From assembly GCA_030141605.1 (NCBI GenBank), contig JAQGDQ010000002.1, positions 868,001 to 932,000 on the forward strand: 64,000 nt of DNA, written 5' to 3'. Origin of the DNA: Tubiluchus corallicola (lineage: Eukaryota; Animalia; Priapulida). Shown piece by piece: positions 3,563 through 44,220 of the stretch. Each line of letters starts with the position of its first letter. Within the stretch, counting starts at the first letter, position 1. The notes beneath the pieces are model-generated. The model did no database searches. It saw nothing but the letters and a program-made list of their open reading frames with translations, and had not been told where the DNA came from. A program made the translations under genes and the position numbers.

Positions 3563-6500
3563 CTAATGACCGTACCCACCCCCGTAACCGCTTGGAAATC
3601 CTTTCAAGTTTGCAAGCCCACCAAGCCCTTTGATGTTGCCAAGACCTCCTATCATTCCCAAACTTCCAGATCCCCCACTGCCACCCCCACCATAACCACC
3701 TCCATAACCTCTCTTTGGCATATTTTCCATGGCTGCTTGTCGGTGAAATCCCATGAAATCACGGCTTCTGCCATATCCTCCACCTCCATGTGGATCACCT
3801 CCTCCTCCGTGCGGATCACCACGACCACTACTACTGCTACTGCTGCTATGTGAATAACTTTGGCCACCAGAAGGCGCACTAGGAGCTGCATGGCCACCAC
3901 TAGGAGGACCGTAGACCATTGCTTTCTGAGGCGCTTCTGGTGGAGATGGTGGAGCAGGTGGTGCTGGGGGCGCTTTTCCACCACCACCGCCGCCACCACC
4001 ACCACCATGGTCATCGTCAAATGAGAGCCCTTGATTACTTGAAGAGCTGCTATGCTTTGAATGATAATCATCTTTGTTGTGATAATCGCCTTGGCCGTCA
4101 AAAACACCCTTATCTCCGTGCCATTTCTTAAATCCATTGTCCTGGTATTTCTGTGAGCCGCCGCCATCTTTGTGCTGATTGTGAAACTTGTATTTGCCAT
4201 TACCTTTGCTGAATTGAAATATTCCTTCACCTTTATTTTTTGACACTTTTCCGTTGAGTTGGAGAAATCCTTTGCCACCATTGTCTTCCTTATCTCCTTT
4301 GCTACAAAATAATTATTTTGGGTTTATTTTGTACGTACACTTACCGAATGTTAATAGAAATTTACTAACATAAATTCACAATGAATCAATTGTTTATTTT
4401 TCGCTAAAGTGCCGTTTGTTAAAGTTTCCTGGAGCTTTTTGCTAGTTAACTCATCTTTAAAATGTGCTAGACTATTGGCATGGTGCTCTGGACAGTAAAC
4501 TGCATGGCTTCTTACTGACTAAGTTTGACTTTATTTTTATGTGTTTTTCTATGTGTATGGCAATGAACTCTAGCAGATAGAAACTCACATGCAAAACAGT
4601 TAGCACCATTAGATCTGATTTTTTTTAAACCGCGCGCACATGGTCGGAATTTTGTTGAAAAAATGCCCGGATGCTTCTGTTTAAAAGGAAATATTTATTT
4701 CATGAACCTCCAGTTTTTATAAAATCCAGAATTTGAACCAATAGAGTACCCAGCGCCTTGTGATCAAGAAGGTCCCCCTTTTTGTTAATACTCGTCGGTC
4801 AACCCAACTTCTCAAAACTATTTGCTTCGAATTTTGCGATAAAAAGATAGATAGTAAAGCTCGTTTCTGGTGCTAGCGCCTGATTTAGACCTAGCGGGCA
4901 GACATTTCACAGTTAGGGCACCTTATCATACAAACTAACATGCAAGAAACATACAAGACTAATTAAAAGTGAACTCAAGTGAACGGCAAACCTTATTGTT
5001 ATAATATACAAACAAACCCTTAAACGTAATTTTTTACTTTTTAATACAGCCATGAAACTAATAATTTTATTATTGTTACACTTTAGAAAGGTGTGGAACC
5101 TCTCTTAAGGGACGGGGCACTTGCCCTTTGACCCCTTAATTATAAATCCAACTTAGTGTCTCATGACTTTTGCCAATGTTAAGCTTTACCTGTCGTACGT
5201 CAACATGTGTGCGTATTTTTGCCAGTCATTGTCTGCGTGATACGCTCCCCATTGTGAAGAAGAAGACGGAGCTGAGCTCCCATATCCTTGAGAGAGCACT
5301 GCTGTCGCCTGAAATTGTCAAACATGTTTAAAAACAAAGCTACTTGATAATTAAGAATGAACTTTCAATATTAAACCAGCGTACAAAATATTCTAGTTTA
5401 TGATTTTGCACTTTGCCAATAGATGGAGCCACATCTTTTGCAGGTGACGGAAAAGTGCTGACAATTTTGGATAATGCTATCCACCAAACTAATGTTGAAC
5501 CAATAGAATTTGGTTCAACGAAGACCAACAATCAGTTTTAAGCATAGTCGACGGGAAGCAGTCTTGAGGATGAGAAAAAACTAAGTAATCGAGAAAAAAC
5601 AGGAAGATTCCTGATAAAGTGTTACAGCAGTCACAGAAAACGACCGATAGGGCCTGCTCTACCACTAGGCAAACTAGACAGTTGTTTAGTTAAAGTAACT
5701 CTTTAATTTATAAGTTCGTCTTAGATAATGACGTAGTTACAAAGTATTATATACGTGTAATTGCTTATGTGCACAACATTTTCTGAAGCGAACTTCTTGC
5801 GTAATTTTCACGCAAAAATGTGTGATTCATTCACGCTAACCAGGAACTGTCTTCCTGCAACAAAACACTCTTCTTTCGCTTTATTTTGCTTCTTATGATC
5901 AGTTACATCATTTCAGGCACTACTGGCACGTTACCGTACTTTTGGTAAAATATTTGTATTGTATGCATAAAGTAGCTGCTGAGTAATTTTTACTAGCAGC
6001 AGATCCTTCTGTTAGTAAAACAATTTTTCTTGCGTTAGCATTTATTTAATTGTCGCAGATAAGAAATCAAAGCATTCGAGAGCGTAATACGAGAAACGAA
6101 AGATAAAATAGCCATAAGACAACAAAAAAGTCACTAAGTAGTTGCACCTAGACCAGATGAATGAGAAGATGATGAAACAAGTGAAATGAATGTCGTGAAA
6201 AAGAGGAGTTAGGTTTTTAGGAAGAATAACCGACGGCAGTACGTAGCTGATGAAAACCAAGCAGAAACAGTTTTACAGATGTCCACCCATCCATTCAGTA
6301 TCCATGCTTGACGTGTTTTAATTTAGCCTTTAGTCTGTCCCCCTAATTCCAGATCTCAATTCTTCTGATGGGAAGCTCACAATTTTTTCTGTAATAACTG
6401 TGTACACTGTGCAGTCTCTGCAGTCCTATCCTGTTTGTGCCATAGGATACGCATTTGTTCTAACTACAATCAAAAATTTCCCTGTGAGATGAAAAAAGAA

Positions 6501-14236: not shown

Positions 14237-17200
14237 TTAAATTTTCGCTGATTCATGCAAGGTTCTCATATCGCGCATAGCTTTCTCGATACCAGCTCTG
14301 AAACGTGTTGCATCCTGAAAAGATAAAGTAAATAAATGAAAATATAAACAGTAAACATACAGATTACAGAGATTTGAGACTGCCTTGAGTGAGTGTAAGT
14401 TTCTAATTTTTTTTGAAGCCCACATAGTGACAAATGCACCTAATATTAGCAAAACCATAATCAATCATAAATAAATAATAAATTAACTTGAAATTATGAA
14501 CTATACAGCAGGATAATGGACAGGCAAATGAAAGTCCTCTGTAGAGAAACTAGTGTATGCTATAATTGTCTATGTTATCCGAAAAACAGTGATGCATCAA
14601 CATACAGGAAGAGTCGTTGCACAGTAATCAATGATATTTCGGTGAGATTAATGTAGGTACAATTGCTAGTTGCTATGTTTCTGCAGTGCACAGTACAAAT
14701 TATTTTTGGTACAAATTCTTGTACTCGCATTCTGATATGGAAAAATGTTGTTCTGTTAAAGACCATACTCATAAAGCACTGATTACTTACCGTAACAGAA
14801 GATGACTTCTTAGCAGACACATGAAAAAATATTGTTTCTTCACCAGCAATGATGTACGACACACCGTAGCCGTCATCAGCAACAGGGCCAAAACCACCGC
14901 CAGCACAAATGTACTCTGGATGTTTTTTAATATCCCACCGGTTTGTTTGTGAGTGAGGTGTCTATAAATAGTATAAAAAAATATGTGTATCATGATCTTC
15001 AATAAATCAGCAAAATATGAAGGACAACACTTTCTTATTACTTTATAACACTTAAAAAGTGGTATTTACATTTGCACAATCAAGAAATATGTAACAGTAG
15101 TTAAATAATCGTGATTATTAACAATAGATTAATCAAATCAATAACAATTACAAACATGTATAAATCCACATAATCGGCAATTGAACAGTAATTCGATTAA
15201 AAAATCGAGAGCAAAATATACGTGTTACACACTGACTAAAAGGCAGTGTTATAGCACAAATAAATGGAATCTTTGCATTTTTCTTTGTCTTTCTTACGCA
15301 AATTGTGAACCATGGAGTTGCAAACTGGGGGCTTCAAATTCATTGGCACATGAAGTATGTAATGACATAGTCACAGAGTAGTTAAAGAAAAAGCAAGCGT
15401 ATCTGTAAAAACAGTTTGCGAGGATGAAAATGGCAGACAGCAACAAAAGCCATGAAGAAATTTATATGCTTATTCACTGCAATCATTAAAAAATATGGCT
15501 AAAATGCTAAAAAATCGCAGCAAAAGATTAATCGTGATATCGAATTACAAGAACAATATTATAATCCAGTTACAAAATGTCAAAGTCGCCATCACTACCT
15601 ACTTAACAGAAAATTATTACTCTCATTTTAATAAAAATAAGCACCATACATTTTTATTTGAAAACTCTAAAACACTATAATATACATTCTTGAATTTCTT
15701 TTCTGAACAATTTTGATGGTAAAACTGGCATATGGATAACAGGTGTCATGTTTGAGTGGATAGATGCATACGCTTTTTGTGAGTGGCCACCATGAGTTCA
15801 ATACTCACAATGGGCAATATAATATCATCCATAAGCCTTGGCTATTTACCTCATAGAAAGATGATGATCATACACTCGAACCTGACTATAATACATCTAC
15901 TGGTTCTACTTATGTTATGTCCTTTATAATAAGCCAGGCTCCCATCATGCCATAAACAACTAGTTAAGAGGGCCGTGCTTTTGAACGCTGTGTGGCTTGC
16001 GCGTGCCAAAGTGAAAAATATATATATACTGGCTCTAGTCTGTAGTAACTGCCAAAACAAAGCTATATATTCTAAGTAAATGGAGTGTTAGTAATAAAAG
16101 CAGTTTTTAAGAAATTTTGTACATAAGTGAAACGCAAACTTACAAAAAATACCAGTTGTATTAACTGCCCGCAAAAAAATATGTTTCAAAAACATACTGT
16201 ACCTGACTGGTTGACAGTTTCCATGGCTCACTCAACACCTTCTCTAGGAATGGAGAATCTTCCTCCAAATATCGTGATACAACATAAAGGCAGAACAGAT
16301 GTCTATCAACACCTTTGCCTAACATAGCGTCCTTGTACCGATTCACGTGCGAATCACAGGCTATTCTTAGTAATCGAATTCTTTCCTCGTCCTACACATA
16401 AAGAGAAGAAATACTTAACTTATAAAACAAATGAGGTACAATTTCTCAGTTGTGACAAAGTTCAGAACAAAGTGAAAATCAAAATTACTTTTTTTAAAGC
16501 AGTTATATCAAGTTTTAACTATTGCCTTCTTTTGCAACAGCACCTTGCACAAATTCTTGATAACATAGCAGTCTTAAAACCTTTTGTTTTAATTGAAAGC
16601 TGCTTTGAAACAAGGCTAGTGAAAAAATGAACTTATCTGCTTACATTAGAATTTGGGTCTTCCATTGCACGCACAAAGGCACATGATTCAAAGCTTACAG
16701 GTCGTACTGTCTCTGTGCGACCTTCGCGGAACAATCGTGTCATTGAAGCTTCGTACGTCAGATCAAACCGTCCTGCGTCCTGGAAAAATACAGTCAGTAC
16801 TAACAGAACTTCATGGCTGTTTGCCTACAAAGTTCTTCGAAAGGTAATTACTAGATCTACAATTACAGGAATACTAGAAATAAATCAGGGCTCATATCCT
16901 CAAAATTGTTAAAGTCACAATCCTGTGCAAATTGCCTCAGAAAATAGTATCTTCACAAAGGTGCTTTAAAAATTTCGAAACAATAGCTTTCATCTAGGTG
17001 TTTTGAGAAAAGTTAAAGACCTAGAATCTTAATTACATGGAAATTATGTAATAAATAAGTTAAGATCGCAACTTTTTGAGAATAAAGGTGACACCCACAA
17101 TTTTGGTCCAATGTTGACATATCAGCAAAATGGTTAAATGTAGGTCAGTCTCAGTTATAAACAGCAAACAGAAAAGTGTTATGGAAGCAAATGCATAAAC

Positions 17201-20200
17201 ACTAAACATATTGGGAGGTAGATTAATCTTAGTTCCTCTCTAGTATGAGTCAAAATATGACAAGAATTCACACAATTTTTAGGATCTTGAAATAGAGCAA
17301 TCTTTAGTTAAATAATGTTACAAAAACAAGAATAACAAACAGGGGAATAAACAAACACTTAACCAGAAGTTTGTTAAATAACAGAAATAAATGGATTATT
17401 TTTATAATTATAATTCTCGAAATAATTATTAATGATGGAAGAAACCCACAATTATTGAATTTCTCTAAACATAATTACTCAAGAACAGAAAATGTGAAAA
17501 ATTCAGATTGTGTTCCCATTTTCCACATTTCCTGTCTTTTGAGCAAGTTTGATTTCAAAAAATACAACAACTATGGATTTGTTCAGAAATAAATGCACTT
17601 TTAGTTTTAATTTAGTTAGAAAACGGTCAGAGCAGTTTTATCAGATGAAATTATTACCCGATAATAAGCCAGCTGCAGCGACATCTGAAGATAAGCGTCA
17701 GGACTAACTTTGCACGTTTTAATGAAGCCCTTGCCATATTCGCGAAACACAGACAACCGCATGTCTACATCTGCTGCTAAACTCTGTCCAATAGCTAGCT
17801 GCTTGTGAATGACTTTAACGACCTGAAAAAATCGCTCATATAAAAAATGCATCATATAAAAAATGTAGTCAAATAAATCTGTTTATAATTGCAACAAACA
17901 AATTAAATATTAAATTCTGAAGAATCATCATAACCACTAAAGCCTAATGAACAGGTATCCTAGCTGATTCTACTATAAGTAAAATGCACTAAATCATGCA
18001 GTTTGTACAGTGAGTCAGTAACTTGAGTCAACGAAATAATCAAAATTCAATTCTGGCAGACGTTTAACTGTGCAATGATCTCAACCGTGACTTCATAAAA
18101 GTTCCTACACTTCCTACAATCGTTCTACTATAGTGTGCATAGCACAAGACATTTTTAAAAAGAAGCATCACATCTGCCAAAAATTCAATGCAGTATTAGT
18201 ACCTCAAAAGCTACTCTTCTTAAGCCAAAAAAAATCAACTCTTATATAACTATTAAATTGATATTGTTAGTAATATTGTATTTTGCAGGATCTTTTAAAC
18301 TACCTTTTGAGCTGGAATATGAGCCTTATATTAATTACACCAACAAACCAGTGAAAAACTCAAGAGATAAGATGAAACCATTCATTTTTTATAAACAGCT
18401 GTATTTTAACTTAAAAATTAATAGATGAATTGAAGTTCCAAGGTTCATTAATTAAGACTTTAAAGTTAGAATGTCACAAAATCACAATGTGAAAAAAGTA
18501 ACGAATTCGATTCCAGCTACATTTGGAAACCGCGACATCATGCCATAATGCAGAAACATAAAGTGGATTTTGCTTCTAATGAAATTCAAAATTTTAAGAA
18601 GCTTTTTAAAATGAGGTTGTAAACTCCAATTACTAAAATGAGAACAGTAAAAAACTACATACCTCATCATTGAGATCCCATTTGAGTCTCTGAATGGGAG
18701 GAAGGTCGGGGTTTACTTCTCCAAGACAGTGCCCATCTTCTTTATAACTAAAAAAATAAATATTAATCATTAGTATCCTTAGCTTTGATATTAGTATACA
18801 TGCACATATGCAAATAAATGAATTTTAATGTGATACTAAACAGAAATAAGTCACATTTCAGTTCAAAAGTTTCTGAATATTGAAATATCGCAACTTATTT
18901 TCAATATAATCTGTTTTTAATTAAAATAAGAAATCCATTAGAGATTGCAGCCAGAAAAGTAAAGTGTCAGCACTGCGGTAGCCATTGTATTACAGAAATA
19001 CCCATAATACCACTGTGACAATAAATGTGATTAAAAGCAAATTACAAATGAAGTGTTTCCAATTAAATTATGTAAAAATTGAATATTAGTTAACTAAGCT
19101 AACTGTACACATTTTTAGTATCAATGAAGAAACACAATTACACAAACCAGAAGTAGAAAAAAGCATAAAACATAACTTACATGACAAATAATGTGATCAA
19201 CATGCAACTTTTGCGAATATTTGGGAAACAACAGCCCACAACAGGTTAATACTTATAATGTTAGTATAATTACACAGGAAATAAAATAATTCATGCTAAT
19301 TTATGCACATAAAAAGTAACAAAAATGTAATGCTTTAGAACTCTGAGAAAAATCCTAATAATTTCATCAATAAGTCATAAAAAATTATTCATTTTTAAAA
19401 CATGTGCAAAACTAATAAGAAACTGAAACCAGGTAAAAGCTTTGAAATTACTGCTATCAACGTTAGAGATTTTGTTTTGTTCCTTAAAAGTCTAGCTTGC
19501 AAATCTTACAATCCAAAGCCCTTGACCATTTAAATTTTAAATTACCAGAAAGACAATTTTTCACACACAATGTGATGCACATATAGTCACAGAAAAATGG
19601 ATTTCACACTGCAACAGCTAGAGTTTAGGTATTTCAGAGAGTACAATCGTAATGAATGATTTTGGTGTTCCAGAGGTTAAAATAAAATGTAAAAGAAACC
19701 ACTCTGTTTAAAAGACAGAAACCTAGCTCCTAAAAACACAATTTAAAAAGAGAGCTGGAGAATACAGATCATTTCATTTAAACAAATGACAATAACTGTG
19801 ACGAAATTTACATAAATTTTTAATCTTACACACATCAGCATAACAGAATAATGAAAAACTCTTCTTGGCAAAGTAATTATTTGCACATGTGTCGGGCTAA
19901 CAGTAACATTTATCCCAAAGATCAATTTTCTTATTAGTTGTTACACATGTTTCAGAAAAACAAAATTATCTACAATGTGATGAAAGACTCTCCAAAACTG
20001 GAGACATTTAAGGTTTTAACCACAGTTCCTGTTGTGACTGCGAACCTGTATTTATTTGCCATTTCACTGAAATGAAAATGATGCCAAATAATTTTTTTTT
20101 GAATTCTGAGAAATATTCAATTAAACCATCTCCTATGTTAGCTACAAGCATCATCAAGATTAGCCAGACTATTAATCATTTTACGCAATAGAGTTAGTGA

Positions 20201-23200
20201 AATATTGCAGGGATCTTGTTATAGGCACACTGCATACACTTCTAACAGTATTTCTATACATGCATTCCAGCAAAATTTTATTACAAAAAGCTAGTCAATT
20301 TTGTAGCTTGAATCTTAACGTACAGTGCTTTACCGAACATTCAGAATAATAAGATAAGTACTGTTAGTGGCAATTACTGAAAAATGCCCATGACCACTTA
20401 AATTCCTACATGTACATAGTACTCTCAACAGTGCTTAACGACTCGTAACTGGTTAATGGATACAGACTTAACGTATGTTTCATTTACTTCACAACAAGTT
20501 CTTCTCATGCCAGCAACATGGAGCGTTGATTGTAGTGATCTTATTACTTACTCACGGAATGTTTATTGCAAATTTTATGTTGAGCAAATTATGTTGTGAT
20601 ATGCTATGTGTTAAGCAAAATACACAATCCAATGGTTCAAGATTAAAATTCCAATAATGACTTATGAATTGGAAACAAGTTTTCATTATGTTAGAACTAC
20701 ATACCATTGAAATCTCCAGATTGAGAAAGTCAGATTTCCATATAAACAATAAATATGTAAGGCCTTTTTCTTGACTGCAAAACGGATCATGGGTAAAGAA
20801 GATGAATTTGGGATTCTTAACGAGCTAACAAGAATCGTAAGAAAAACACTGCATAATTTCTAACAACTTTTTCACATGACTGCAACTGTTGCGGGAGTGT
20901 CAGTGATGCATGTAATGTTTATCAAAGTAATGAATGTCACTCACTCTTTCGGCATTTTCAACTCACAGTCCAAAAAACTCACAAAAAACTCCTAAAAAAT
21001 TTTTCCATGACAAAAGTTGACACTCTTGCAACTTCTATTAGACAATAAAATTACAGATAAATTTGCTAATGAGTCTGCAGTCTTGCTCATTTAATAAGTG
21101 TTCAACTAAAAGAAATCAGCAGCCTTACTCAACATCTGATACTGTTGTGGCAACAGTCAGATAAATAAGTGAATCTGATACACATTCTTGTAGCAAAGTG
21201 CGAATAGCCAGTAGCAAAACAAAATGCATGTATGTTAGCTTATGCAAGAAACTCACCACCTACCGCAATATATCATGGTCGCAAAACATCATTTCCTCCC
21301 ACAGGTAGCCCATGATTGGCGCGTCTGCCCTACAAGGTGAAAAGAGGCAGGAAAAAGATGGATAGGTTTAGTTGATGGCACACGGAAGTGAGGAAGGAAG
21401 TGAAGGAAACAAAAAGGGGTTGTTTTAGTGCATGCAAAATCAACAAGTGCAAAGGAAAAGGATATAAGTATTAGGTTGATAACCAAAGATTAAAAAGGAA
21501 ACAACGGAAATGTATTAAAGCATTAGCACCAATATCAAAAAGGAAGGACAAACAGTGTTGCAGACAAAAAGCACACAAACAAGAAATAAGACAAATAAAC
21601 AAAACAATCAACAGCAACAGTAGTGCAGCAGCCAAGTCCCAAAAGTTGAAGAGCAGTTTAAGGGTTTTGACATCATGCAGTCAAAAAATAGTGAAAACCA
21701 TTTAAACACAATACAGTACAGTTTTTTTGGTAAATGTGCAGAAAAATAATGAATTTTGTTAGTGTTGTTATTAAAAAACAATATAACCAATGAGCAAGTG
21801 GATAAAATGTGGTTTTAAAGCACAAGTTACATTTGATTGGAGAGGAAAGGAAATGAAAAAAAGAAAAACAAATTAATGAGACACATAAAGTCACATGATC
21901 TTTATGCAGTTAAACATATATGTATGTAAGCACCACACAAAAGTGTGACAAACCGTATCTCGAATCTGTCTGCACCAATAAAGTACTCTTCTGTGAACGC
22001 GATTATTGGCCCGTCACCCCTGCCAATGAACAACATACTGTCATAAAGGCAGTGTTGGCACTTCAGAAAAAAACACCCATGACAAGAATTGGCCAGGTAC
22101 CAAGCATTTTTGTATTTTTTTCTTCGATTCGTAATTCTTAGCATACATCTGTCTACTAAATCCACCAAATTTTTGTCTACTACATGAATATTCGAATTAC
22201 GTTAACTTGCCCAATTAAGATTAAATATTCTAAGAAAAGGGCTAAGGTTTGCATTTTGGAGGATGGCGTTTCTTCAAAGTATCACAACACTTTGAAGATT
22301 AAAAAATACTAAATTATTTTTGAGAGGGGGCTTGATCATGAACAAGGTAAGAAAAAGCCAAAACAGAAATGTTCTTCAACTTATCCAGGGCATGATGCAC
22401 AAATGAACCAATCCAAATAGTTGTGTTTGCAAATGATGAGAAAAATAGCAAACGCTTGGCCGTGGATGTACAAAAATCCCATGTTCATTACAGTAGCTTT
22501 TGGAACGCTAACTTTATTCTTGTAAATGGTGATTCTTTCATTTTGCAAGCTAACTGGGCAGACAGACAAAGCACTTTTAAAAAACTGACCGAACTGGACT
22601 ACCATCATCATGAAGGGTATAATATTCAGCGACCGTATTGAAAGTTGGTGCATCAGCCCTGTCAACAAATCAAACTGCAAAATTGCATGGTGCTGAAATA
22701 AAAATTTATTACCCAGGACACGTTAAAGTTGAGTTCCACACATCGCTACACTGACACAATCATTCCAAGCAAACCAAATACAGTTACACGACACACTACA
22801 AAACATTATACTTGTTAAAACAAATCTTCATTACTTGCAGTCAGAACATCTTTTTAATTTGTGGAGTTATAAAATTTAAGTTTCAACAGTTTGGAAACAA
22901 TGATAAAAATTTTTTCTGCTCGCTGTAATGAAATAAAAAATCCCTTGTTACTTCAAAAACACACACTGCACAAAGCATTAGCTGTTGGTGACCTATCACT
23001 TAAACCTTTTTCTAAAAAAATTTTATGTGTATGTGCGTGTGTTTGTACTAAAAAACAGTGAAAAAGCATACCACAAGGTAAGAAGTAAACAAAACAAGAA
23101 TTAGGGAGATCTGTGATCTCGAAACTGAGAGTCCTATTCAATAATGTGTGCTTTCTTCCCATCTTACTTAGACCATAACAAACTTAGAAAGCAGTTAATT

Positions 23201-26200
23201 TTTAAGAATATAATATAACGAAAAACAACCACATAGGCACACCCAAAATTTCCACACTTTCACTGATGTACACGAGTAAAATTTACTAACACAGAATCTA
23301 TTCAACTACCAGTGGCGGATTACCCACAATGCACACTAGGTGTGTGCGTAGGGGCCACCAAGCCTTGGGGGCCTCAGTTTGTAGGTCAAATAACTCAAAA
23401 ATTAAGTTTGTTAATTAATTGGGAATGAAAAATAATCATGTTGAGTTTTAGAAATGCTTGATTTAAATCATTACCTACAAAGTTTTGCAGTTGCTTTTAC
23501 AGTCCAGAAAATGTTTTATTTGACGCAGACTTCAAAACAAGTGTCTTAGTGAAGCCTGAATTTGCCATAGTAGAAATCACTTGAAGTACTTCACGCAGTT
23601 CTTAAATTTTAATGTGAAAAAGTAACCATGTTGACTAATGACTAAGTAATTATAAAAAATAAGATTTAGAATAGCACAAATTGCTAGACTTGTTTGCTAA
23701 TATAGGCCTCCAAAGACCTCTAAAATGCAGTTTATAGTTTACCTACTAGTATTAAATGACTAAGGCCTAGTGTAATAAAAATCACTGCACTGGTATTTAT
23801 GTCTACATATACTTCTAGGGGCCTCTGAAACAACTTGTAGTCTAATGCATCAAGATACAAGTAAATACTTTTTGTTTTGAAAGAAAAAATTAAAAAACAA
23901 TTACCAATTTTAACCTATTTAAACATCCAGAGTTCATCTGCTTTTATGGATAAAAAAGGCCTCAAAAAGTACTAAAATATAGGAAATGCATTGGTATCCT
24001 AGGACCCCACTGGGGAAGCTTACAAAACTACGAAGACCCCTTAGTGTTTTGCTTAGGGGCCCCTGTATTCGTTAATCCGTCACTGTCAACTACTATCACT
24101 AAACAACAAAATGCAGTCATAATTATCACTGCTCAAACATATTCATATACCACTCTTCATTTGCCTCATAAGCTAACTCCATCATCGAGCTTGGTATCGG
24201 AGCATCTAAACTGAACACAATGTTCAAAATTGCTCACGTTAAACCGAGTACACATGTAAAATGTAATACAATTTACTGGTGCACGAAATAAGAAGAATCA
24301 AGGAAAATGTAGTCTAGATCAAGTTACACTTCACTAAATGCAAAGTGGAAAAGCTTGAAATCGACAATTTTGACTTAACCGAGTAGCAGCATTAATTTTA
24401 AAGCGCTTATAAATAATTTAATCATTAATAGAAATTTGTAGTCTTCCTCGTGAAAATAACCATTAATAATTTGTCAGGAAGCAAGGAACAGTTGATTTCT
24501 TTGCATAAAAGTATTACTCTATTTTCTGAACATGTATTAATTTGACATATACAAAAAAGACTGCTTACCAGGAATGTTCAATATTCAGGCCCAAGTGGCC
24601 ATTCTTTAAAACGATGAAAGTAAAGCTTTTATCGAACCAGCGATTGTAACAATTTCCATGCAACATGGAAGCTGCCCAACCATCCATTTTAGATCTGTCA
24701 TCCTGTAAATAACCGATAAATGATAAGAAAGGTGATAGGTACATAAAAATTCGTCTATTCTTAACTTTCATAATTACCTATAAAGCAGTGATTTCCAGCT
24801 TCATGCCTAAACCATTACCACCAGTTTATCCCATAAATTCTGTTAATTCAGACATACAAGTCTACTGCTATGCTTATTAGCTCAACCCTGAATAGTGTAA
24901 AGCTTTAGCAATACGCATGTTGAAAAAGCATACATACTTCATTCAGTCACATCTTGTAAACTACTTTATTGATAGCCCTCAGTCGCAATGTTTTAAAATT
25001 ACACTAATTTCTAATATGCTATACTATTATGACTTACCGGATCATAGTAAAACTCATCATCATCAAGTGCCATGAAAAAAGCAGCTTTTTCAATCACGTC
25101 TAATGATGTCTTGTTCATGCCTTTGCGGAAATGTGTCATTCTGGCTTGTGCCCAGGTAGCACGTTCACCTGCAGTGAGAGCTGCCAAGTACTTTTCCCCT
25201 GGTGCTGGCTCACTCTCATCTGCTATAATTCTATTTACCAACCTGTTAAGGAGAAAAAATGGCATTAAATAATTATCATCAAAGACCAAGCTTTCTGAAT
25301 TTCCACAAGTTAATATGCCATTCTTATTCAGTGAAAAAGCACAACAGTTCTCCTTTAGTCATTCCATTTACACATGACTTATAACAACTATAATAATAAT
25401 AAAGTATAATGATGCAAATCAGAGTACAAATCAAAAGGCACATTTTCCCGAAGACTCATTCATATTTTCTAAAATTTATATGCACAAAATATTTCACCAT
25501 ATTCACACTAAACGTAGTGCTGCATCCATGTACTCATGCGGGGTTAGAGATATACCTGGATGGTTATAGTATGTGCTTGGCCACAAATATTATGCAGCAG
25601 CCCTGATCCTGGTTAGTAAATGGATGGGTAACACTGGATATTTCCATCATTGAGCGAGAATGTATACGCATCCAAAAGAGGCTTTTTTGATGGTTCAGCG
25701 TCGCATCTTACAGGTTTGTTCTTGATAATGAGTTAAGAACCAGTCTGATACGTTGAAAAGGCTCAGTAATTTTGGAAAAAAAGACTAAATAGTATTTTCA
25801 TTTCTGTAATTTAACCTCATTGGAATTTATAAACATATTGCAGGAAGTAGTGTATCAACAAGGGTATAGATTAAAACAGCCTGAAAATTATACCTGCAAT
25901 TTTATGCAATCTGTTTAGTCACTCCAATTCTATTACACTTACATTATTTCCTGTGAAAAAAATCATTTCCATTTCCCAGGAAAACATGTCATTATTTAAT
26001 GATGATACACTTCCAGCCTTCCATCCTTGATACAATGCAATGATTATTAAGCCAGAACTTATTGTTCATATCATCAAATCGTAAGGCACATATTGTTAAC
26101 ATTTTCAGAAATACCATAGAAGACACAGCACTCACACTTCTAGTTCTGCAGGATTTAGGAGGCGACCTTTCCGGTAACATGGGAGCTTGAAGAAACGACC

Positions 26201-29200
26201 TCTGTGATAAACTGCAACATGCGTGCTGTCATGCAAGTGCATTAGATGATCTGAAAATTTAAAACAGACAAATTAATATAATATATACTATTTCACTTCA
26301 TCTGAATGTGCTTCGGTGGTGCAATATTTAAGGCGCAATTTTTTAAATATAATTCTCATGCTCTACATTGATTTAAAGTGGCTCAACACCATGTCTGGTC
26401 GATTCTAAGAATGTTCTATGTCAAATACAGTAGCAAAAGATGAAGGGATTTTTGAACCCATGTTAAAATTCTTTCCATGCTCGTACTTCATTGAAGGATA
26501 TGCTACCGGATAATTGAAGAAACTAAATTTGTCCTAAAATACAAGCAAAAATACATGTAACATGTTTTGGATACACGTGCGAGTGCATGTAAGAAATGCA
26601 AAGTCACATTGAAAGCAGGTTAGTCGGTTGATCATAAATGCATTCCGACATCCTCCTATAATTTATGACGTAAGAACAAGAAGAACAACGAAACATACAT
26701 AACATGCAGACGTGTCTTTTCTGAGATCTAACAAGTACGTTTTTTAGAGTGGAGGCTAGCTAGCTTGTAAAGATAAATAATACTAAGAAAAATGACATAA
26801 AACATGCAATAGCTTCAAACATCAACTTTACATAAACCTATCAGATATTCTTTTAAAAAATGTACAGTGAAACAACATAATTGTAACATGTATTCAATCA
26901 TGCACATTTGAAATGCTTGCAAAGTCAGGAAAAATTCCTAGCTAGAAAATGTGAGGATGCACACAAAATTTTAAAAATCCAATAACAAAAGTTAATAAAA
27001 TTAAAGATTCTGAATATTTACCCGTATCTATTCCTGGTATACGCGTGGTGTTAAATATACGCTCGTTCTGTGCTGAGCACAGTGGTATGAGATTTTGCAC
27101 AACTATAGGTGGAATGAGCTGCCGATTCAGACGGCTGCGAAATCGCAGCATGGCGTTGATGCAGTTTGCTGCTCGTGCTGCCTGTATGTGGGTAGGTTTG
27201 ATGAGGATTGCATCCTGAAGTTTACACGAGAAAAATGACATAATATATTTGTGTGAAAATCAGCCACCAACATTGATTTCTATAAAAGTCAGAAATAGAA
27301 CTCTATTATACAGTTAATACAAATTAAGAATCTATTCATGTACCCAGCATTTCCAAACAGTGTCACGCATAACCAAAAATTTACTAGTCAAACAAATACA
27401 TTAATAATTTACTGTTAACTTAATATAGCAAATTAAAGACAAAATTATCACTAATTATTTGCTCAATGTTCTAGAATCTGGATACACTGTTACGATATGC
27501 AGTTCACTGGTTTATACTTAGTCTCAGGTAATCATATTTAAATTTACCAATAAATCGTTAAGAAAAAATAATATTAAATTAATCTAATTAATTACATTAT
27601 TTCAGCATATTAATGTGATGCAAAAAATCTAAGAGAATTGGACTTTCACTTTTAAAAACATACAAAAGTACCATTTGTTGCTGCATCACTAATGTCGGCA
27701 CCTATGAGGAAATAGCACATTATGCATATTGCAGGCATTGGGCAAACAAAAGCTAGGTTCTTAAGAGAAATTAAATTTAAAAATTTGAATTTTAAGACCA
27801 GAAGATTCAAATTCATAATTTCAGAACTATCTATGGCATTAGTTTTTGGATCAAGAAGGCAAATTTCTTTTGAAAATGTTAGGCATCTGCAAGCCCACAA
27901 TCTATAAAGATATATAAACTATAAAGTGATAGAGATGATACTCCTTGACAGAGGGGCGATGACTCTGCAATAATACTTTAAAATGGCTGCAAAACAAAAC
28001 TAACTGTGCTACACAAACCTTTAGAAAGCCATGAGCAGATACCAGGTTGAGTAAAATACCAAATTTATGTACACTGTGGGTACATGCAGTATCTAAGCAC
28101 CGAATTGTAATGACATACATTTTGTAATATAATTACACATATATTTACATATTTGCTTTAAAAACTTACAAAAGCACCATTCGATCTATAAGAAGAAATG
28201 TAGATTATTGCCACACAGTTTTAACAAATTAAGCCATGTTTACCAAACGTTCGGAATTGTGCAAGCGTTAGTGAGTGTGCGTATGCGATTTGTGGCACAG
28301 CGAAAAATCTCTCTACATTGCTTTTAATGCACAAGTTGCCAGGCCTTCGTTACTGTGTTTTGGACCCTGGGAATGGCAGAACGCCACTTTAACGATTTTT
28401 ATACAAGGATTAGCTAAAAAAAAATTATGTCACACTTAATACTTGGGAAGGAAATACTGCTGTGAAGCACAAGTGCCATTAAGCAGCAATGTTTAAACAA
28501 TAATTCCATTCCACATATTTTGTAAACCACTAGTTGTTCAGGAGTTATGTTGCAAGTGCTTATAAACACTTGGATAGGCAATAACACGTACGCAATTCCG
28601 GGCATCTGGCAAATGTAGTCTTACTGCATAATGCCAATAACTAGCTACAATAACCAGCTTACCAGCTTATGGTAGAAAAAATAACAGTAGTTAGCTTTAA
28701 AACTCACACAATAGGTAAGTCAAAGATCAAGCACAAAAAATAATAAGACAAGTTACATAGTTGAAGTTATCAAAAGAACACTACATGCAGAAATCTACCA
28801 TTTACGAAGTTCTAGTCAGAGAGACAACGTTTGTGCACCACACAGCTAAAACCGCCTTGTTTGAAGTTAAACTGCAACAACTGATTCACCCATGTGAGTT
28901 TAGAATAACTGATGTTTTCAAAGCATGGGTACTGATTTTGAATGGTTAAAAATGCTTGGTTTATTTGTCTGGCAGCATTAATTTTAGGTGAATATTAAAC
29001 TAATAATTTTAACCTGTTAGTACATAATCTAAACCTTTTCTCTCTCAACTGTTAAGTATGAAGGATAGGTGAACATCTTTGTCAAAACTTGATTCGTCCA
29101 AAAAAAGCCTCCAAGAACAAACAACTAATGTTAATATCAAAGGTAACTCAGAGTAAGTATCAAAATTTAATAAAATTATTCTATTCCATTTTGCCCAAAT

Positions 29201-32200
29201 TGAAATAAAATAACTGACAATAAAAAATTTCGGCTATGTGATTATAAAAAAATCTAATTAATTAAGTAAATAAAGCCTCACATTTAAATTTGTTATAACT
29301 TGTAAGAAACAATTTTAATGAAGCTTTTTCACCTCAACACCTTTCTTGGATGTTGTGAGACATCAAGTTTTAACAACATGAATCTTAGGTAGAAGTGCAA
29401 CTCATTCACCAAAGATAAACAGCTTCTTGATATGTAATTGTGTACAACATATTGCATGTAATTATATGCCACTGTGAATAAAAAATAACCTTTTCAGAAA
29501 ATGAAATCTCGGGTGCAGAATAATAGACATGCAAGAAATTAAACATGTTAGTTAACACAAACTCTTAAAAATATATGTATATCTGTGTGAGTTAAATCAA
29601 CTGTACTTTCAAGTACTTAAACAGCAAAAATTTTCAGGATACAATTTAACACATACAATGACGTGTACACAAGTACACATAAGATATCGTAATGAAAAGC
29701 AAAATTCTGAAATTGACCCAACAACAGTAAATTCAAGAGACAAATACTTCATAACTTACGAGACAGTAAAAATTTGAGTTGATCATAATTGGGTTGCGAC
29801 CTGCTAAGTACACAAACTTTTCCCACCAATCAGACACCTAGTAACAAAAACTTGTAATGTAAAAATGCTTAAAATCTGCATTAAAATACATACCAAACCA
29901 TAGTAGTTTGAATTGACAACAACAGGCGCACGCCCTTTGAGGTAAACCATCTCCTCCCACCAGTCAGAAACCTTTATGAAAAAGTCATAACATCTCATTT
30001 GATGGAAAAATTAGGCAGATTTAGAAAAAAGCTACTACCAAATCATATTACCTGCTGATATATGCCTTATTTTTCAAATAACTTTTTGGACAAGAAACTA
30101 CAAAGAATGTGTCAAGAAAATTTTATCATATGATAATGCTATTAGTGAACAAAGGAAACACTGTTTACACAAACAATGAGTTTATACTGCAAGCAACCAT
30201 CAACCCATCAAAAGCGAGTAATAAAGTACAATCACAAAATTACAAATAACTAATTACTTGCCACTTCTTCAAACAATGATAAACACATTTTGTGCAACAT
30301 CTCACATCTTCTGATGTCTTTTTAACTGCCCGTTGCACAAGCCATTTTAACTGTCAAGCCATTATCTATAATACATAGAATGATGCATATTATCCTATGT
30401 ATTGCACAAAAATACCACAGTATCCAGTCTACTACGAACAACCAAGTTAACACGCCAATCACTTACGTAATTTGTTGCCCACCAAGATTTCAGCCACAGA
30501 TACCTCTGAAGTCTTTTACCAAGGTTGTTTTTGAATTCTTCTGCCAAATGCTCCATATCTTCATATTCTGCATCACTGAGCAGCGGACGCACCGTTAACA
30601 GAAACTACATTACAAAAAAAGTAAATAATAATTTTAGAATAAACAATTATTGTGGAATGAGCACTACACACAAGATAATCGTTTCAAATGCAATGCAAAA
30701 ATGATAATTTTTCACACCAATGGCAGGATATTACAAAAAGTGGATGTATTATCAAGTAACAGGAATAACTGCCAGATGTTCTAAGTCAAGCACTCAAAAT
30801 TGCCCAATTACAATTTTTTGTTTCTTTTGGCTAAATAGTGGTAGTAACAGTAACAGTAACCGTACTAGCAATAGCAGACAAGCAGTATTGAGAGGCTTAC
30901 ATAACCTAAATGTTTTTCGATGAGTGCTTTAGCTAAAAATAAAATTACATAACAAATGCCTTGAGTCACGAAACATACCTTATAAGGAGATTGATTAGAA
31001 CAGTTTTAAGTTTTCTGATAAAAATGAATGTCTTACCCTCTGTAATGTGTCATTCAGTTTAGGAAGAGGCAACTTAGGAAGAGATCCTTGGTAACTGTAA
31101 AGATGTGGATTTCTACCTTTCAACAGTTTAACCAGCATCTGAAAATAAATCAGAAAATAATGCAAAATTTAGTTATTTTTTCTCAAAAAGTAAATTTTTA
31201 GTAATTACATCAGTAATCAGATCAAAACTTATTAATATTTTTAATATATTTGAATGCAATACTTGTGTAAAGTGCTTTATATCATCCACCACATTCTTCA
31301 GTTAACAATAACGTGTCTGCAAAAAAATATTTACCAAAAAAAATTTCTACTGGAAAGTTTTTTCAGAAATTCAATGACAACAACATGACTTGATATTAAT
31401 CTTGTTTTAACTTATAATCAACAGTAACAGCAATGAAAATTTGCTCTTCTGCAGATTTTCTGGATGACAGAGCGACAGATTTATTAGGGTCAAAATTCAT
31501 TAGATGGGTCAAAGTGACAGGTATGAGTGACAGATGTGAATGGCAGGGTGACAGACTTTGATAAGGACATTTTTTTATTTTTGAACTAATATTAATGTAG
31601 TGTACATAACAAAACAATCAATGTTTTATTTGAAGGAGTTTAGTTCTTTCTGTAGCTCATCTCACTACATTTCTTACTAGTGGATTTGTTTACTCTTCAG
31701 GATAGGCATACAGCTCAGCAGGTCATCTAGTGAGCTTTCGTGTCAGTCTCACATTAAGTTGCAATAGAATTTAGAACACGCACAGAAAAATTATTCCAAA
31801 ATAAAGAAGCTAAAAAACTTACAGCCCAGATCTTGGTCTTCAAGGACATTTTCCCTCGTGGTTCATTCATCCAACCTTGGTACATGAAGAGCAGTTTAAG
31901 AGCATACCGAATAAATAAGATTAGGCCAAACCAAGCTAGTATACCAAATGTTAACGTGCTCAAATAAAGAGCAAATGTGGGTGCCAGATATTCCCTAAAC
32001 AATAAAAAATAGTCACTTGAAATGCAGATTGAGATTTGTTAGTTACTGATCTGTTACTCTTAAATTTAGTAATCAAACAAAAATAAAATCTTTTATCAAT
32101 GTGCTGCATTTCAGAACAGCTGGTCAATATTTTTGAAACAAATAATTAAAAACAAAAACGATTAACAAAAATGAAAGTTTGGCAGAAAGAACAGTCGAGC

Positions 32201-33438
32201 ATTGAGAACCTGTTCAAGACTGGAGTACAGTCTTGTGATGTACACACTGCACAAAAGTGCACATGCCTTATTGTTTGCACTTACCAGCCCACGTAGCACA
32301 TAACATGTCTACATAGATTTTTTTCTCAGTAGCAACAAAACCTTACTGCATTACTTAGAAGTGAGAGATGTTTTTACTGTGATTAACAACACAAAGTTAA
32401 CTAACAAAGCTTAGACACCTTACTTTAGCCAAACTTAATAGTATTGGTACTTGATAGCAAGTTATATAAAAACAAGATGGACAACAGAAAACAAAATTGC
32501 AGTTTAAAAGATGTGAAAAAATGTGCTTTTCAGAGAATTTATCAGTATTTAATCTACTTTTGTCTTTAATTAGTCAGACAGTCTCATGGACCTTGCAAAT
32601 AGCAAAAGGCAATTGCCCAACTTTAATTGTCAGATTTTGACAAATAGCTATTACCATGTGCAACATGCAGTTATTCCTCCCAATTTATCATTTAATTTGA
32701 CAATTGACTTACCATGGAATATGATGTTCAAATGCATCAATGTATCCAAAAGATGGATCGATGCCAACACCAAACCGCAATGTAAACACAATGCCTATAG
32801 CTAGTGCCAAGGTGTGAGGTTCCAAAGGATAAAGTCCAGCTCTAAGGTCATGCTGTGAACGATACGTTATAAACGATTAACAGGGGTTAAATAAATATGA
32901 AGGCTGAAGAACACTGCAACATCAAACACTAATAAAAGTAATAAATATTACATAACGCAAATATAAAATTGACCCTATTCTTTCAATAACTGTTATGCAT
33001 TAAACTTGATTCTTACACATGATGATAATAATTTTGACAATAATTTTCATAAAATTATACAATAGAAGAATTAGTACAAAATGCAATATAAATGTGAAGA
33101 CAAAAATATGAACTATTGCATAATAACAAATGCAATAAAAATGAAAATTTTGAACTGGTTAACTTCAACTCATTAATATAAAATGCTGAAAGGATAATTT
33201 TGATCACTGTGATAAAGACGATTAAAACAGCATTTAACTATAACTTCGGCTTGATATCAAAAGAATTTAAATAAATTAGCATGCTTTTTCAATTTACCCA
33301 ATGTCTTTGAGCATGTTTGTAAAAGGAACGTATGCCACTGATCCAGATGGATGACAGAACCTCACGATTAAAGTCCACCTCTAAACCTTCATGGGTAATT
33401 TGGAAAGAAAATGCAACTGCTTGATGGGCCTCCGCCAT
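14237..33438 (-). CDS. CPT1: Carnitine O-palmitoyltransferase 1 (CPT1-type), 17 coding exons, ~768 aa with the canonical-like exon 11D
   Basis: Exons (minus): 33438-33298 ([12 protein letters not shown]), 32852-32713, 31994-31823, 31138-31037 (SLPKLPLP), 30604-30467 (KSWWATNY), 29971-29894 (VSDWWEE), 27214-27022, 26250-26136, 25242-25038, 24702-24569 (NRWFDKS...EHSW, catalytic His at about residue 471), 21329-21264 (or an alternative), 18747-18663, 17822-17658, 16779-16645 ([19 protein letters not shown]), 16391-16203 (GVDRHLF), 14961-14791 ([16 protein letters not shown]), 14314-14237. All introns GT-AG with consistent phases; total 2307 nt. An acceptor upstream of 33532 implies a non-coding first exon. 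Confidence 0.97.
21264..21329 (-). CDS. CPT1: CPT1 exon 11D (closest to vertebrate CPT1): (W)[21 protein letters not shown](R)
   Basis: Acceptor TTGTAG, donor GTAGGT, 66 nt, phase 2/2; resembles vertebrate HSWADAPIVAHLWE. Confidence 0.93.
21332..21914 (-). promoter_or_regulatory. AG-exclusion zone with candidate distant branch point and polypyrimidine tract for CPT1 exon 11D
   Basis: No AG on the transcribed strand (no CT on plus) from 21899 to 21332. Branch-point-like TTTAAC (21914-21909) and CTCATTAAT (~21880-21872) lie just before a ~33-nt pyrimidine tract (21872-21840). Confidence 0.75.
21954..22019 (-). CDS. CPT1: CPT1 alternative exon 11C: (W)[21 protein letters not shown](R)
   Basis: Acceptor TGGCAG, donor GTTTGT, 66 nt, phase 2/2, no stop, same length as 11D, D-G-P-x6-E-x5-D. 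Confidence 0.85.
22590..22658 (-). CDS. CPT1: CPT1 alternative exon 11B: (W)[22 protein letters not shown](R)
   Basis: Acceptor TGACAG, donor GTCAGT, 69 nt, phase 2/2, no stop, WADAP plus E and D at the same offsets as 11D. Confidence 0.85.
23310..24085. mobile_element. Non-autonomous hAT-type MITE between CPT1 exons 11A and 11B
   Basis: TIRs CAGTGGCGGATTA / TAATCCGTCACTG; perfect 8-bp TSD TCAACTAC (23302-23309 and 24086-24093); subterminal GGGGCC motifs. Confidence 0.9.
24151..24210 (-). CDS. CPT1: CPT1 alternative exon 11A: (C)[19 protein letters not shown](C)
   Basis: Acceptor GTTCAG, donor GTATAT, 60 nt, phase 2/2, no stop, D-A-P-x6-E motif aligned with exon 11D. Confidence 0.75.
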
Positions 33439-37882: not shown

Positions 37883-41544
<3,662 letters not shown>

Positions 41545-41606
<62 letters not shown>

Positions 41607-42527
41607 GGAGAGAGGGAGAGAGGGAGAGAGGGAGAGAGGGAGAGGGAGAGGGAGAGGGAGAGGGAGAGACACAGAGAGACAGAGACACAGAGAGAGACAC
41701 AGAGAGACAGAGAGAGAGAAAGACGCAGAGAGATAGAGAAAGACATAGAGAGACAGAGAGAGACACAGAGAGACAAAGACAGAGAGACAGAGAGAGACAC
41801 AGACAGACAGGGAGAGACACAGAGAGACAGAAAGAGAGGCAGAGAGAGAGACAGAGAGAGAGACAGAGACACAGAGAGACAGAGAGAGACACAGAGAGAT
41901 AGAGAGAGACAGAGAGAGAAAGTGTGAGACACAGAGAGACAGAGAGAGAGACACGGAGAGGCACAGAGAGCAGGCGAGAGACACAGAGAGACAGAGAGAG
42001 ACACAGAGAGACAGAGACACAGAGACAGGGAGAGACAGAGAGAGACAAAGAGAGAGACACAGAGAGACAGAGAGACAGAGAGAGAGAGACACAGAGAGAC
42101 AGAGAGAGACACAGAGAGACAGAGAGAGAGAAAGACGCAGAGAGATAGAGAGACATAGAGAGACAGAGAGAGACACAGAGAGACAGAGACAGAGAGAGAC
42201 AAAGAGAGACAGAGAGTGACAGAGAGACAGAGACAGAGAGACACAGACAGACAGGGAGAGACACAGAGAGAGAGACAGAGAGAGACACAGAGAGACAGAG
42301 AGAGAGACACAGAGAGATAGAGAGAGACACAGAGAGACAGAGAGAGACAGAGAGACAGAGAGAGAGAGACACAGAGAGACAGAGAGTGAGACACAGAGAG
42401 ACAGAGAGAGAGACACGGAGAGACACAGAGAGCAGGCGAGAGACACAGAGAGACAGAGAGAGACACAGAGAGACAGAGACAGGGAGAGACAAAGAGAGAG
42501 ACACAGAGAGACAGAGAGAGACAGAAA
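41545..42527. repeat. GA/GACA compound microsatellite (right half) starting with a pure (AG)n run
   Basis: Pure (AG)n 41545-~41598, GAGAGG variants to ~41667, then degenerate GAGACA/CAGA units with an internal ~0.45-kb duplication. Confidence 0.97.
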
Positions 42528-44220
42528 CGGTAATTTATCGTTTCTTTTTGAAATTTTCATTTTTTTTATTCAGAATTATGAATAATTCGTACTAATTTTT
42601 TTCCGATTTAGGTCACATTCAAGATCGAATCTCGTCAATTTATGGACGAGCTGGCCAAAATTTCATTAATGATCTAAGTATGCCTGGTCAAGCTGTAAAT
42701 AAACATATATTAATTATACTTCAAATACCCGCCCCAGTGGAGTTATGAGAATTTTAAAACAGGGTGTCATTCAGACTGTAGCAGACACGCATCTTTCATG
42801 AGCTCATGATACCTACTGAAAGAGAATCTCAATTCATCAAACTCAATGTGGCAATAGGGCAAGACCCCTACTATATATACCACCCAGCAACTAGTCCTGG
42901 ATCATTCATTTACTGCCTGTAATGATGTGACAAATATAGGTCATTTTTTTACGTCAAAATGGCCAAAATCCGAAAAAAATCAAAATGGCGGCCTATCTCC
43001 GAAACGGCTCATTTTTGATATCTAACATTTTGGCTGTGGGGTACATCTGAGGGGATCATCCAACCCTGTGAATATGAACAAAATCGGTGATTTGTCACCT
43101 TCCACTATTTTTTGACTTTTGCATGGTTTTCTCGCGGAATGACTCTCAAGGGGTAGGTAATTAGGCTGATTGCTAGAGAGTAGGATGCTTTCTACATTAA
43201 AGCACTGTTACCTCAGTACATAGACTTATATAAGTATAAACAGGCATATATTAGTATATAAGCAGTACTGGAATTACGGAAATTACTGAAACTTCAAAAT
43301 GTGCTGTACGCATAAATGATTCAACATGAAGCTTGTTAATTTTTGATAACTTAATGTGCTTGTGCATAATAAACATTCTGCCATGTTTAGATTAATTTTT
43401 CAAAATGTTCTAATACCAAAATCCTTAAATTAATACTTTTCTATCATATGGTGATAAAGATGGCAGATTGTTGACAATAAAGTTGGGTCACTGCCAAGGT
43501 ATTTTGCTGCAGGCAAAATGAGCTGGTAGCAATCAGCATGTGGTCAATACAGTGTCTAAAGGGTAATGGAATGGTATTTCATTCAAAGCTGCGATTATTC
43601 GTGCACATCCCTAATATAAAATACTCAATCTTGTCAACAAGATTAATAACATATGTAATAGCGAGCCAGTGGCATTTTTTGGTGTACACTTGAATAGTAA
43701 AACAGTGATGTTTTCGTTTTCAGTTATGTATGTCTTTGAAATAGGTCCGCGAAATGCTATTTAACATAACTTTGTATGGAAAGTTTTTTATGAACTAATT
43801 CAAGATTCCCTTTCTTCTCCTTTAAAATGTGTTTTACGGGTTTCAGTTATGCCTAATGCATTAATTTACTATCCACATAGCTCGCTGTAATCTGGTGATT
43901 TCAGCATAATTAAAAACAAGACTAAATTATCGTCATTGCACCTTCATCTTCATGATAATTTCAAGTGCTTTATTAATGAATTTAATCTAGCTATGGAAAT
44001 ATACAATTTGATTCTCATCTTAACTTTTCCTCTATACAACTTTAACGGATACCACAGTTACCAAGTACAATCTGGGCTGTTCTTTACACTAGCTGCTTTA
44101 TTAATTGACAACACACTTCATCTTTGAAAGGCTTATCTCCAGGCGAAACAGTCGTGTCATTACAATGGTCACTGAAAATGTTTACAGTGCAGAAAATGAA
44201 ATCGTTTTACAGGTTTATAG

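Follow-up and report, generated by a model that had tools for sequence, protein, structure and literature searches.

In Drosophila, carnitine palmitoyltransferase 1 (CPT1, encoded by withered) is produced from one gene with the alternative exons 6A and 6B (Price et al. 2010, cited in PMC10879661, PMC3793950 and PMC10352773). The enzyme made with exon 6A is the more active of the two, and the choice between 6A and 6B, which involves serine/arginine-rich (SR) proteins and protein kinase A, shifts with starvation (PMC10879661). Multi-copy exon clusters are described in PMC3793950 and PMC4691838 for Dscam and for exon 11 of the Na+/K+-ATPase, the latter with two to four copies, and a docking-site model for exon clusters is set out in PMC4691838. 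The subject of this study is the CPT1 gene found in a 64,000-nucleotide stretch of the genome of the priapulid Tubiluchus corallicola (contig JAQGDQ010000002.1, positions 868,001 to 932,000; hereafter the window), which carries four short exon copies, cassettes A–D, directly after the exon ending in the catalytic His motif, together with a second pair of exon copies, a and b.

The priapulid gene resembles the fly gene in that alternative exons are duplicated within one CPT1 gene, and its duplicated exon covers the same segment of about 22 residues past the catalytic His that differs within the isoform pairs of six species named below. Unlike 6A and 6B, the cassettes number four rather than two and are far more diverged, with 4–6 of 19–21 residues common to a pair of cassettes instead of two close copies; a second duplicated exon is present as well. 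The exons are tandemly duplicated and frame-preserving, as in Dscam and in exon 11 of the Na+/K+-ATPase, whereas no significant docking–selector pairing of the Dscam kind was found here, and the swapped part is a helix beside a catalytic residue. Vertebrate CPT1A, CPT1B and CPT1C and diverged invertebrate CPT1-like proteins (for example Allacma fusca P0038 and P0146) vary at the same two segments as the priapulid gene; there, whole proteins vary, which are taken to come from separate genes, whereas here exons would be swapped within one gene. A full-text literature search, reaching neither subscription papers nor supplementary lists of mutually exclusive exons, in which this gene could appear, brought up no CPT1 gene with three or more alternative exons or with another duplicated pair; within that scope the four copies, the depth of divergence of A–C and the second cluster are new.

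The four-cassette cluster

The gene is identified as CPT1 by its CPT_N domain (PF16484, matched by exon 1 with an E-value of 8.8e-22), its acyltransferase domain (PF00755, Carn_acyltransf, matched in all nine catalytic-domain exons scanned, cassettes apart), its HxxxD motif and its nearest relatives. No Pfam match was obtained for the three short cassettes included in the scan or for two neighbouring open reading frames. All eight of the 2 × 4 exon combinations are open, with GT–AG splice sites, and encode 766–769 amino acids per isoform. The identity of the spliced protein to any homologue is at most 59–60%, highest with arthropod CPT1, and in two quick trees, the rows of which held no CPT2 or CrAT, it lay among the CPT1 rows, on a long branch with arthropods and outside the chelicerate and mandibulate groups (SH-like approximate likelihood-ratio test, SH-aLRT, 90), a placement that probably indicates an ecdysozoan. 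Searches for close relatives brought up none: one gave two matches among three candidates, and in another the identity was at most 65% among the 150 representatives listed.

Table 1. Coordinates of the CPT1 gene and of its exon copies in the window (nt, nucleotides)
Feature	Position	Strand	Remarks
CPT1 gene, coding span	14237..33438	(-)	Intact; 17 exon positions, 21 exons including alternatives
Second duplicated exon, copy a	29894..29971	(-)	78 nt, phase 0/0; PF00755, E-value 2e-6
Intron between copies a and b	29838..29893	(-)	56 nt; next shortest intron of the gene 253 nt
Second duplicated exon, copy b	29760..29837	(-)	78 nt, phase 0/0; two conserved columns occupied by Lys and Ala
Constitutive exon ending in catalytic His motif	24569..24702	(-)	Phase-2 donor; joined to D in X2 contig
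Cassette A	24151..24210	(-)	60 nt; most deviant; Cys for near-invariant Trp; two residues short; no RNA join seen
Cassette B	22590..22658	(-)	69 nt; covered by X1 contig without differences; no RNA join seen
Cassette C	21954..22019	(-)	66 nt; Gly next to motif Asp, as in CPT2, CrAT and ChAT; no RNA join seen
Cassette D	21264..21329	(-)	66 nt; canonical CPT1 type; spliced in relative; profile score in natural range
Weak candidate docking site	20772..20795	(-)	Possible pairing partner of the introns following A–C; statistically not significant
Constitutive exon downstream of cassettes	18663..18747	(-)	Gene model and X2 contig

The cassettes lie within the 5,821-nucleotide intron between the exon ending at 24569 and that starting at 18747. 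They are homologous, share the same phase, preserve the frame and have their own splice sites. The coordinates, lengths, phases and minus-strand peptides given for them in the original prediction proved correct on recheck, and so did the pattern D-[AG]-P-x6-E, present in all four, and the Asp six residues further on, present in three. Although this intron offers 58 stop-free AG..GT candidates of 45–99 nucleotides, Asp occurs at residue 3 only from the four cassette acceptors, and in none of 500 order-3 Markov simulations did any acceptor read xxD[AG]P; a chance origin of the four-cassette pattern is excluded by these simulations. On a score matrix built from just 14 splice sites of the same gene, the cassette donors fall at the 87th–96th percentile of the 393 GT sites of the intron and the cassette acceptors at the 77th–98th percentile of its 273 AG sites. 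Further in-frame donors exist in A (three, giving 57, 72 and 81 nucleotides) and in C (one, giving 81 nucleotides), and the 3' end given for A is therefore a best guess. A repeat search at the cassettes gave no convincing inverted repeat.

Evidence for splicing came from contigs of X2, a run from one study that is presumed to be RNA and comprises 14 million letters. A 216-nucleotide X2 contig runs from the upstream exon into D and on through the next two exons, skipping A–C, with joins from 24568 to D and from D to 18740; the short side of the first join measures 33 letters. X2 derives from a relative, with 35 differences in 495 letters over five constitutive pieces and two in 65 letters of D, and its contigs also skip predicted CPT1 introns of 718, 432 and about 840 nucleotides. 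These joins establish D as a genuine exon, with no other cassette beside it in this contig. The junctions anticipated by the original prediction were thus found on both sides of D, in one contig of a relative, and for none of A, B and C. A second run, X1, possibly is the source of the window DNA itself, and its cover of B–D is not independent. Two side observations concern the introns of the gene: high-depth X1 contigs (sums above 100) at about 15170–15580 and 25569–26520 represent repeats, and the stretch 19615–19744 behind D matches an X2 contig of depth 18 at about 85% and may be a conserved intronic element, a retained intron or a repeat.

The encoded segment was placed on an AlphaFold model of shrimp CPT1 (P0174), built from a 101-row alignment with a predicted local distance difference test score (pLDDT) of 87.6; a sequence search of solved structures with the CPT1 catalytic domain gave no match, and the model matches the structures of COT, CrAT, ChAT and CPT2. 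In the model a strand (471–476) leads to His477, and the cassette corresponds to residues 479–500, of which 482–500 form a helix. The model thus supports the cassettes as encoding the helix directly behind the catalytic His. With every cassette the HxxxD motif is complete, Asp following four residues after His 471 in all four cases, as had been claimed for this segment.

Residues were compared with 117 distinct homologous segments, the columns being numbered from His473 of CPT1A, with Trp475, the next residue and Asp477 fixed by the search pattern. Glu486 is conserved in 99% of the segments, Trp485 in 94%, His483 in 84% and Pro479 in 65%; in a separate count, Trp475 was present in 173 of 174 long homologues, with Cys in its place in cassette A. 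Cassettes A–C retain the Asp, Pro and Glu and have lost His483 and Trp485. The view of A–C as mild variants was dismissed on the loss of these two columns and, in A, of the near-invariant Trp as well. The profile score of D exceeds those of 25 of the 117 natural segments. Gly next to the motif Asp is shared by C, CPT2, ChAT, CrAT and two of the 117 CPT1 segments, and Gly at this position is expected to lower malonyl-CoA sensitivity, an effect on which the literature search gave no text. The original prediction had tied the segment to A478, P479 and H483 of CPT1A. P479L and L484P lower the activity or stability of human CPT1A (PMC10076611); the four cassettes carry S, T, F and Y at the H483 position and none of them His, and the literature search gave no text on the roles named for A478 and H483.

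Residues common to the cassettes are mostly carried by different codons. When neutral decay was simulated from D to the observed 38–47% nucleotide identity, the AG, the GT, the open frame and the Asp, Pro and Glu were all kept in 5 (A), 4 (B) and 19 (C) of 200,000 runs, a test that is free of indels and scores the very features by which the cassettes were defined. With a three-periodic coding model trained on the constitutive exons, all six copies (A–D, a and b) score best in their true frame, above at least 98.8% of the frame scores from 1,401 intron windows, on which the intron model of the test had itself been trained; A has the lowest coding score among the four cassettes. The six copies have a GC content of 40–52%; that of introns is 31% and that of coding exons 44%. 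Coding constraint is shown for all six copies, and the earlier description of the cassettes as old duplicates under selection is borne out by decay runs, frame scores and silent codon differences.

The second exon pair and copies in other animals

The second pair was absent from the original prediction. Copies a and b encode the same segment, with 17 of 26 residues in common, 12 of these 17 being specified by different synonymous codons. The segment corresponds to residues 238–263 of the shrimp model, where a helix is followed by a second, short one and then by a strand, and presumably lines the carnitine site (Trp102 and Tyr107 of CrAT), a role that the literature search did not find. None of 180 homologues has two copies of it. 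Branch-point-like adenines in the intron between the copies lie 34–39 nucleotides from the donor. This intron is likely too short for splicing, so that the choice of one copy would be forced, probably by steric exclusion. A tblastn scan of the gene recovered this pair and missed A–C, and other diverged duplicates are therefore not excludable by such a scan.

In other animals, nine isoform pairs were tested. In those of Eupeodes, Bombus terrestris, Folsomia, Portunus, Eriocheir and Lineus, all differences (10–12 of 10–12 in each pair) fall within the segment that follows the catalytic His, the pair of a bivalve cluster has eight of its ten differences there, and one pair is without the swap. 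The segment that differs in the hoverfly pair is probably the equivalent of 6A/6B. The two-exon system that had been attributed to insects is thus present in them (hoverfly, bumblebee) and is not confined to them, occurring also in a springtail and in crabs and, outside the arthropods, in a nemertean, a brachiopod and a snail. CPT1 records of the snail (P0194), the brachiopod (P0275) and the nemertean (P0231 and P0404) hold two versions of the post-His exon each, so that the fly 6A/6B system extends to lophotrochozoans. The His motif is present in 291 of the proteins fetched; the segment occurs once in 261 of these, twice in 24 and, by the pattern, not at all in six, and no protein has more than two copies. 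Gene models with two tandem copies include those of Lymnaea and Lingula. No swap was found in the fetched proteins of spiders, scorpions, horseshoe crabs and ticks. The sample is biased to arthropods near the crab query, with 120 of 2,653 matches listed, and protein records would not reveal unannotated diverged copies.

The two-copy exon of crustaceans, springtail, nemertean, gastropod and brachiopod thus covers the same segment as the cassettes, and D resembles its Pro-type copy; nothing in the priapulid gene corresponds to the Ala-type copy, which is common in mandibulates. Unlike A–C, which have lost the Trp, the two-copy pairs keep Trp-Glu and share 8–15 of 19 residues (22 of 23 tandem pairs; one identical pair, 19 of 19, was set aside). 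Variation of a similar kind, at the same two segments as in the priapulid gene, is seen in the diverged CPT1-like proteins P0038 and P0146 of Allacma, P0039 of Echinostoma, P0036 and P0073, and such proteins of other animals are likewise without the His column, the Trp column or both; they share Gly-Asp-Gly past the Trp with C, and Ala for Arg together with the same five closing residues with copy b. The search for orthologous cassettes that had been suggested gave no relative of A–C among the proteins examined. As to origin, an expanded version of a known system and an independent one had both been considered; expansion of the old system is the more likely and independent origin the less likely, because the same segment differs between isoforms of hoverfly, bumblebee, springtail, crabs and nemertean.

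Exon choice and competing readings

We consider it probable, at roughly 0.62, that each transcript receives a single copy per cluster, that D is the default and that the pocket is reshaped in the enzymes made with A–C. The resulting enzyme forms are predicted to be unlike in their use of substrates or in their inhibition. D would supply the canonical helix, and in A–C the motif Asp, the helix-starting Pro and the Glu may hold the fold, with the changed residues between them reshaping the pocket beside the catalytic His. Splicing factors would likely make the choice among A–D, as they do between 6A and 6B in flies, perhaps together with RNA pairing. The four-copy cluster is likely derived, through tandem duplication, from the two-exon cluster that occurs across protostomes.

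Several points weigh against this reading. The X2 contigs show no splice join to A, B or C, nor to copy a or b of the second pair; X2 is a small run, and missing cover of these copies in it is not evidence for absence. The 6-residue words of A–C are absent from the proteins examined, including the 115 matches of a profile built with A–C, and the profile scores of A, B and C lie above just two of the 117 natural segments; being below the other 115, these cassettes possibly give weak or dead enzymes. The frame is also open with all cassettes skipped or with several included in tandem, so that the reading frame imposes no choice. The candidate docking site, with a predicted pairing energy of −16.4 kcal/mol or better to each of the introns that follow A, B and C, was at first matched by none of 12 shuffles and is not significant against 5,000 random intron triples, 7.9% of which matched it; in the upstream docking-site search, 19 of 30 shuffles were equally good. 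Finally, the decay test addresses past selection and indicates past constraint rather than present use, and both it and the coding test carry the limits given above.

A bolder form of the reading, which we regard as tentative, is that of a combinatorial active site, in which one of two exons for a wall of the substrate site and one of four for the helix would give up to eight acyltransferases differing in chain length, acceptor or malonyl-CoA behaviour, the C forms being predicted to be inhibitor-insensitive and CPT2-like.

Among the alternatives, it is unlikely, though of some weight, that only D, perhaps with one other cassette, is used now, A–C having once been functional and now being rarely spliced or decaying, A first. 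D alone has been seen spliced, in a contig that is unbroken through the next exon, and A, with its Trp-to-Cys change, its shortness by two residues and the lowest coding score of the four, would fit as the first to decay. Against this, A–C keep their frame, splice sites, Asp, Pro and Glu and coding-like composition, so that any loss would be recent in all three.

It is rather improbable that A–C are spliced into low-activity or non-catalytic forms of CPT1 acting as regulators, sensors or an off-switch. The loss of the His and Trp columns would suit such a role, as would the effects of the single helix changes P479L and L484P on human CPT1A, whereas HxxxD is complete with all four cassettes, and the active relatives CPT2, ChAT and CrAT differ strongly over the same stretch. 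That the cassettes are non-exclusive, several in tandem or none entering a transcript, is very improbable: every such combination is in frame and 24 database models have two tandem copies, but these models are probably gene-prediction artefacts, the sole spliced contig holds a single cassette, the named isoform pairs carry one copy each, and the segment is predicted by the model to be a single helix beside the catalytic His.

Neighbouring features and implications for CPT1

Elsewhere in the window, the exons of a Rabin8/RAB3IP-like gene lie at about 54383–56540 on the plus strand, the last of them matching PF25555 (E-value 5e-37). A frame of a retroelement of the long interspersed nuclear element (LINE) type, with endonuclease and reverse transcriptase domains, occupies 38572–42534 on the minus strand amid long GA-rich simple repeats. 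An open frame of 249 codons at 3563–4312 (minus strand), rich in Gly, His and Ser and of cuticle- or structural-protein-like composition, has no Pfam or Atlas match.

The two-copy exon in crustaceans, springtail, nemertean, snail and brachiopod points to an old control point of fat oxidation in protostomes, whereas the literature found describes Drosophila only. Since annotation would miss diverged extra copies such as A–C, larger arrays may hide in other genomes. If A–C are used, the priapulid gene would amount to a helix-swap experiment performed by nature, with the rest of CPT1 unchanged, and could reveal which of the residues next to the catalytic His determine the preference for acyl chains and the sensitivity to malonyl-CoA; and if the combinatorial active site exists, splicing would do in this animal what other animals do with a gene family.

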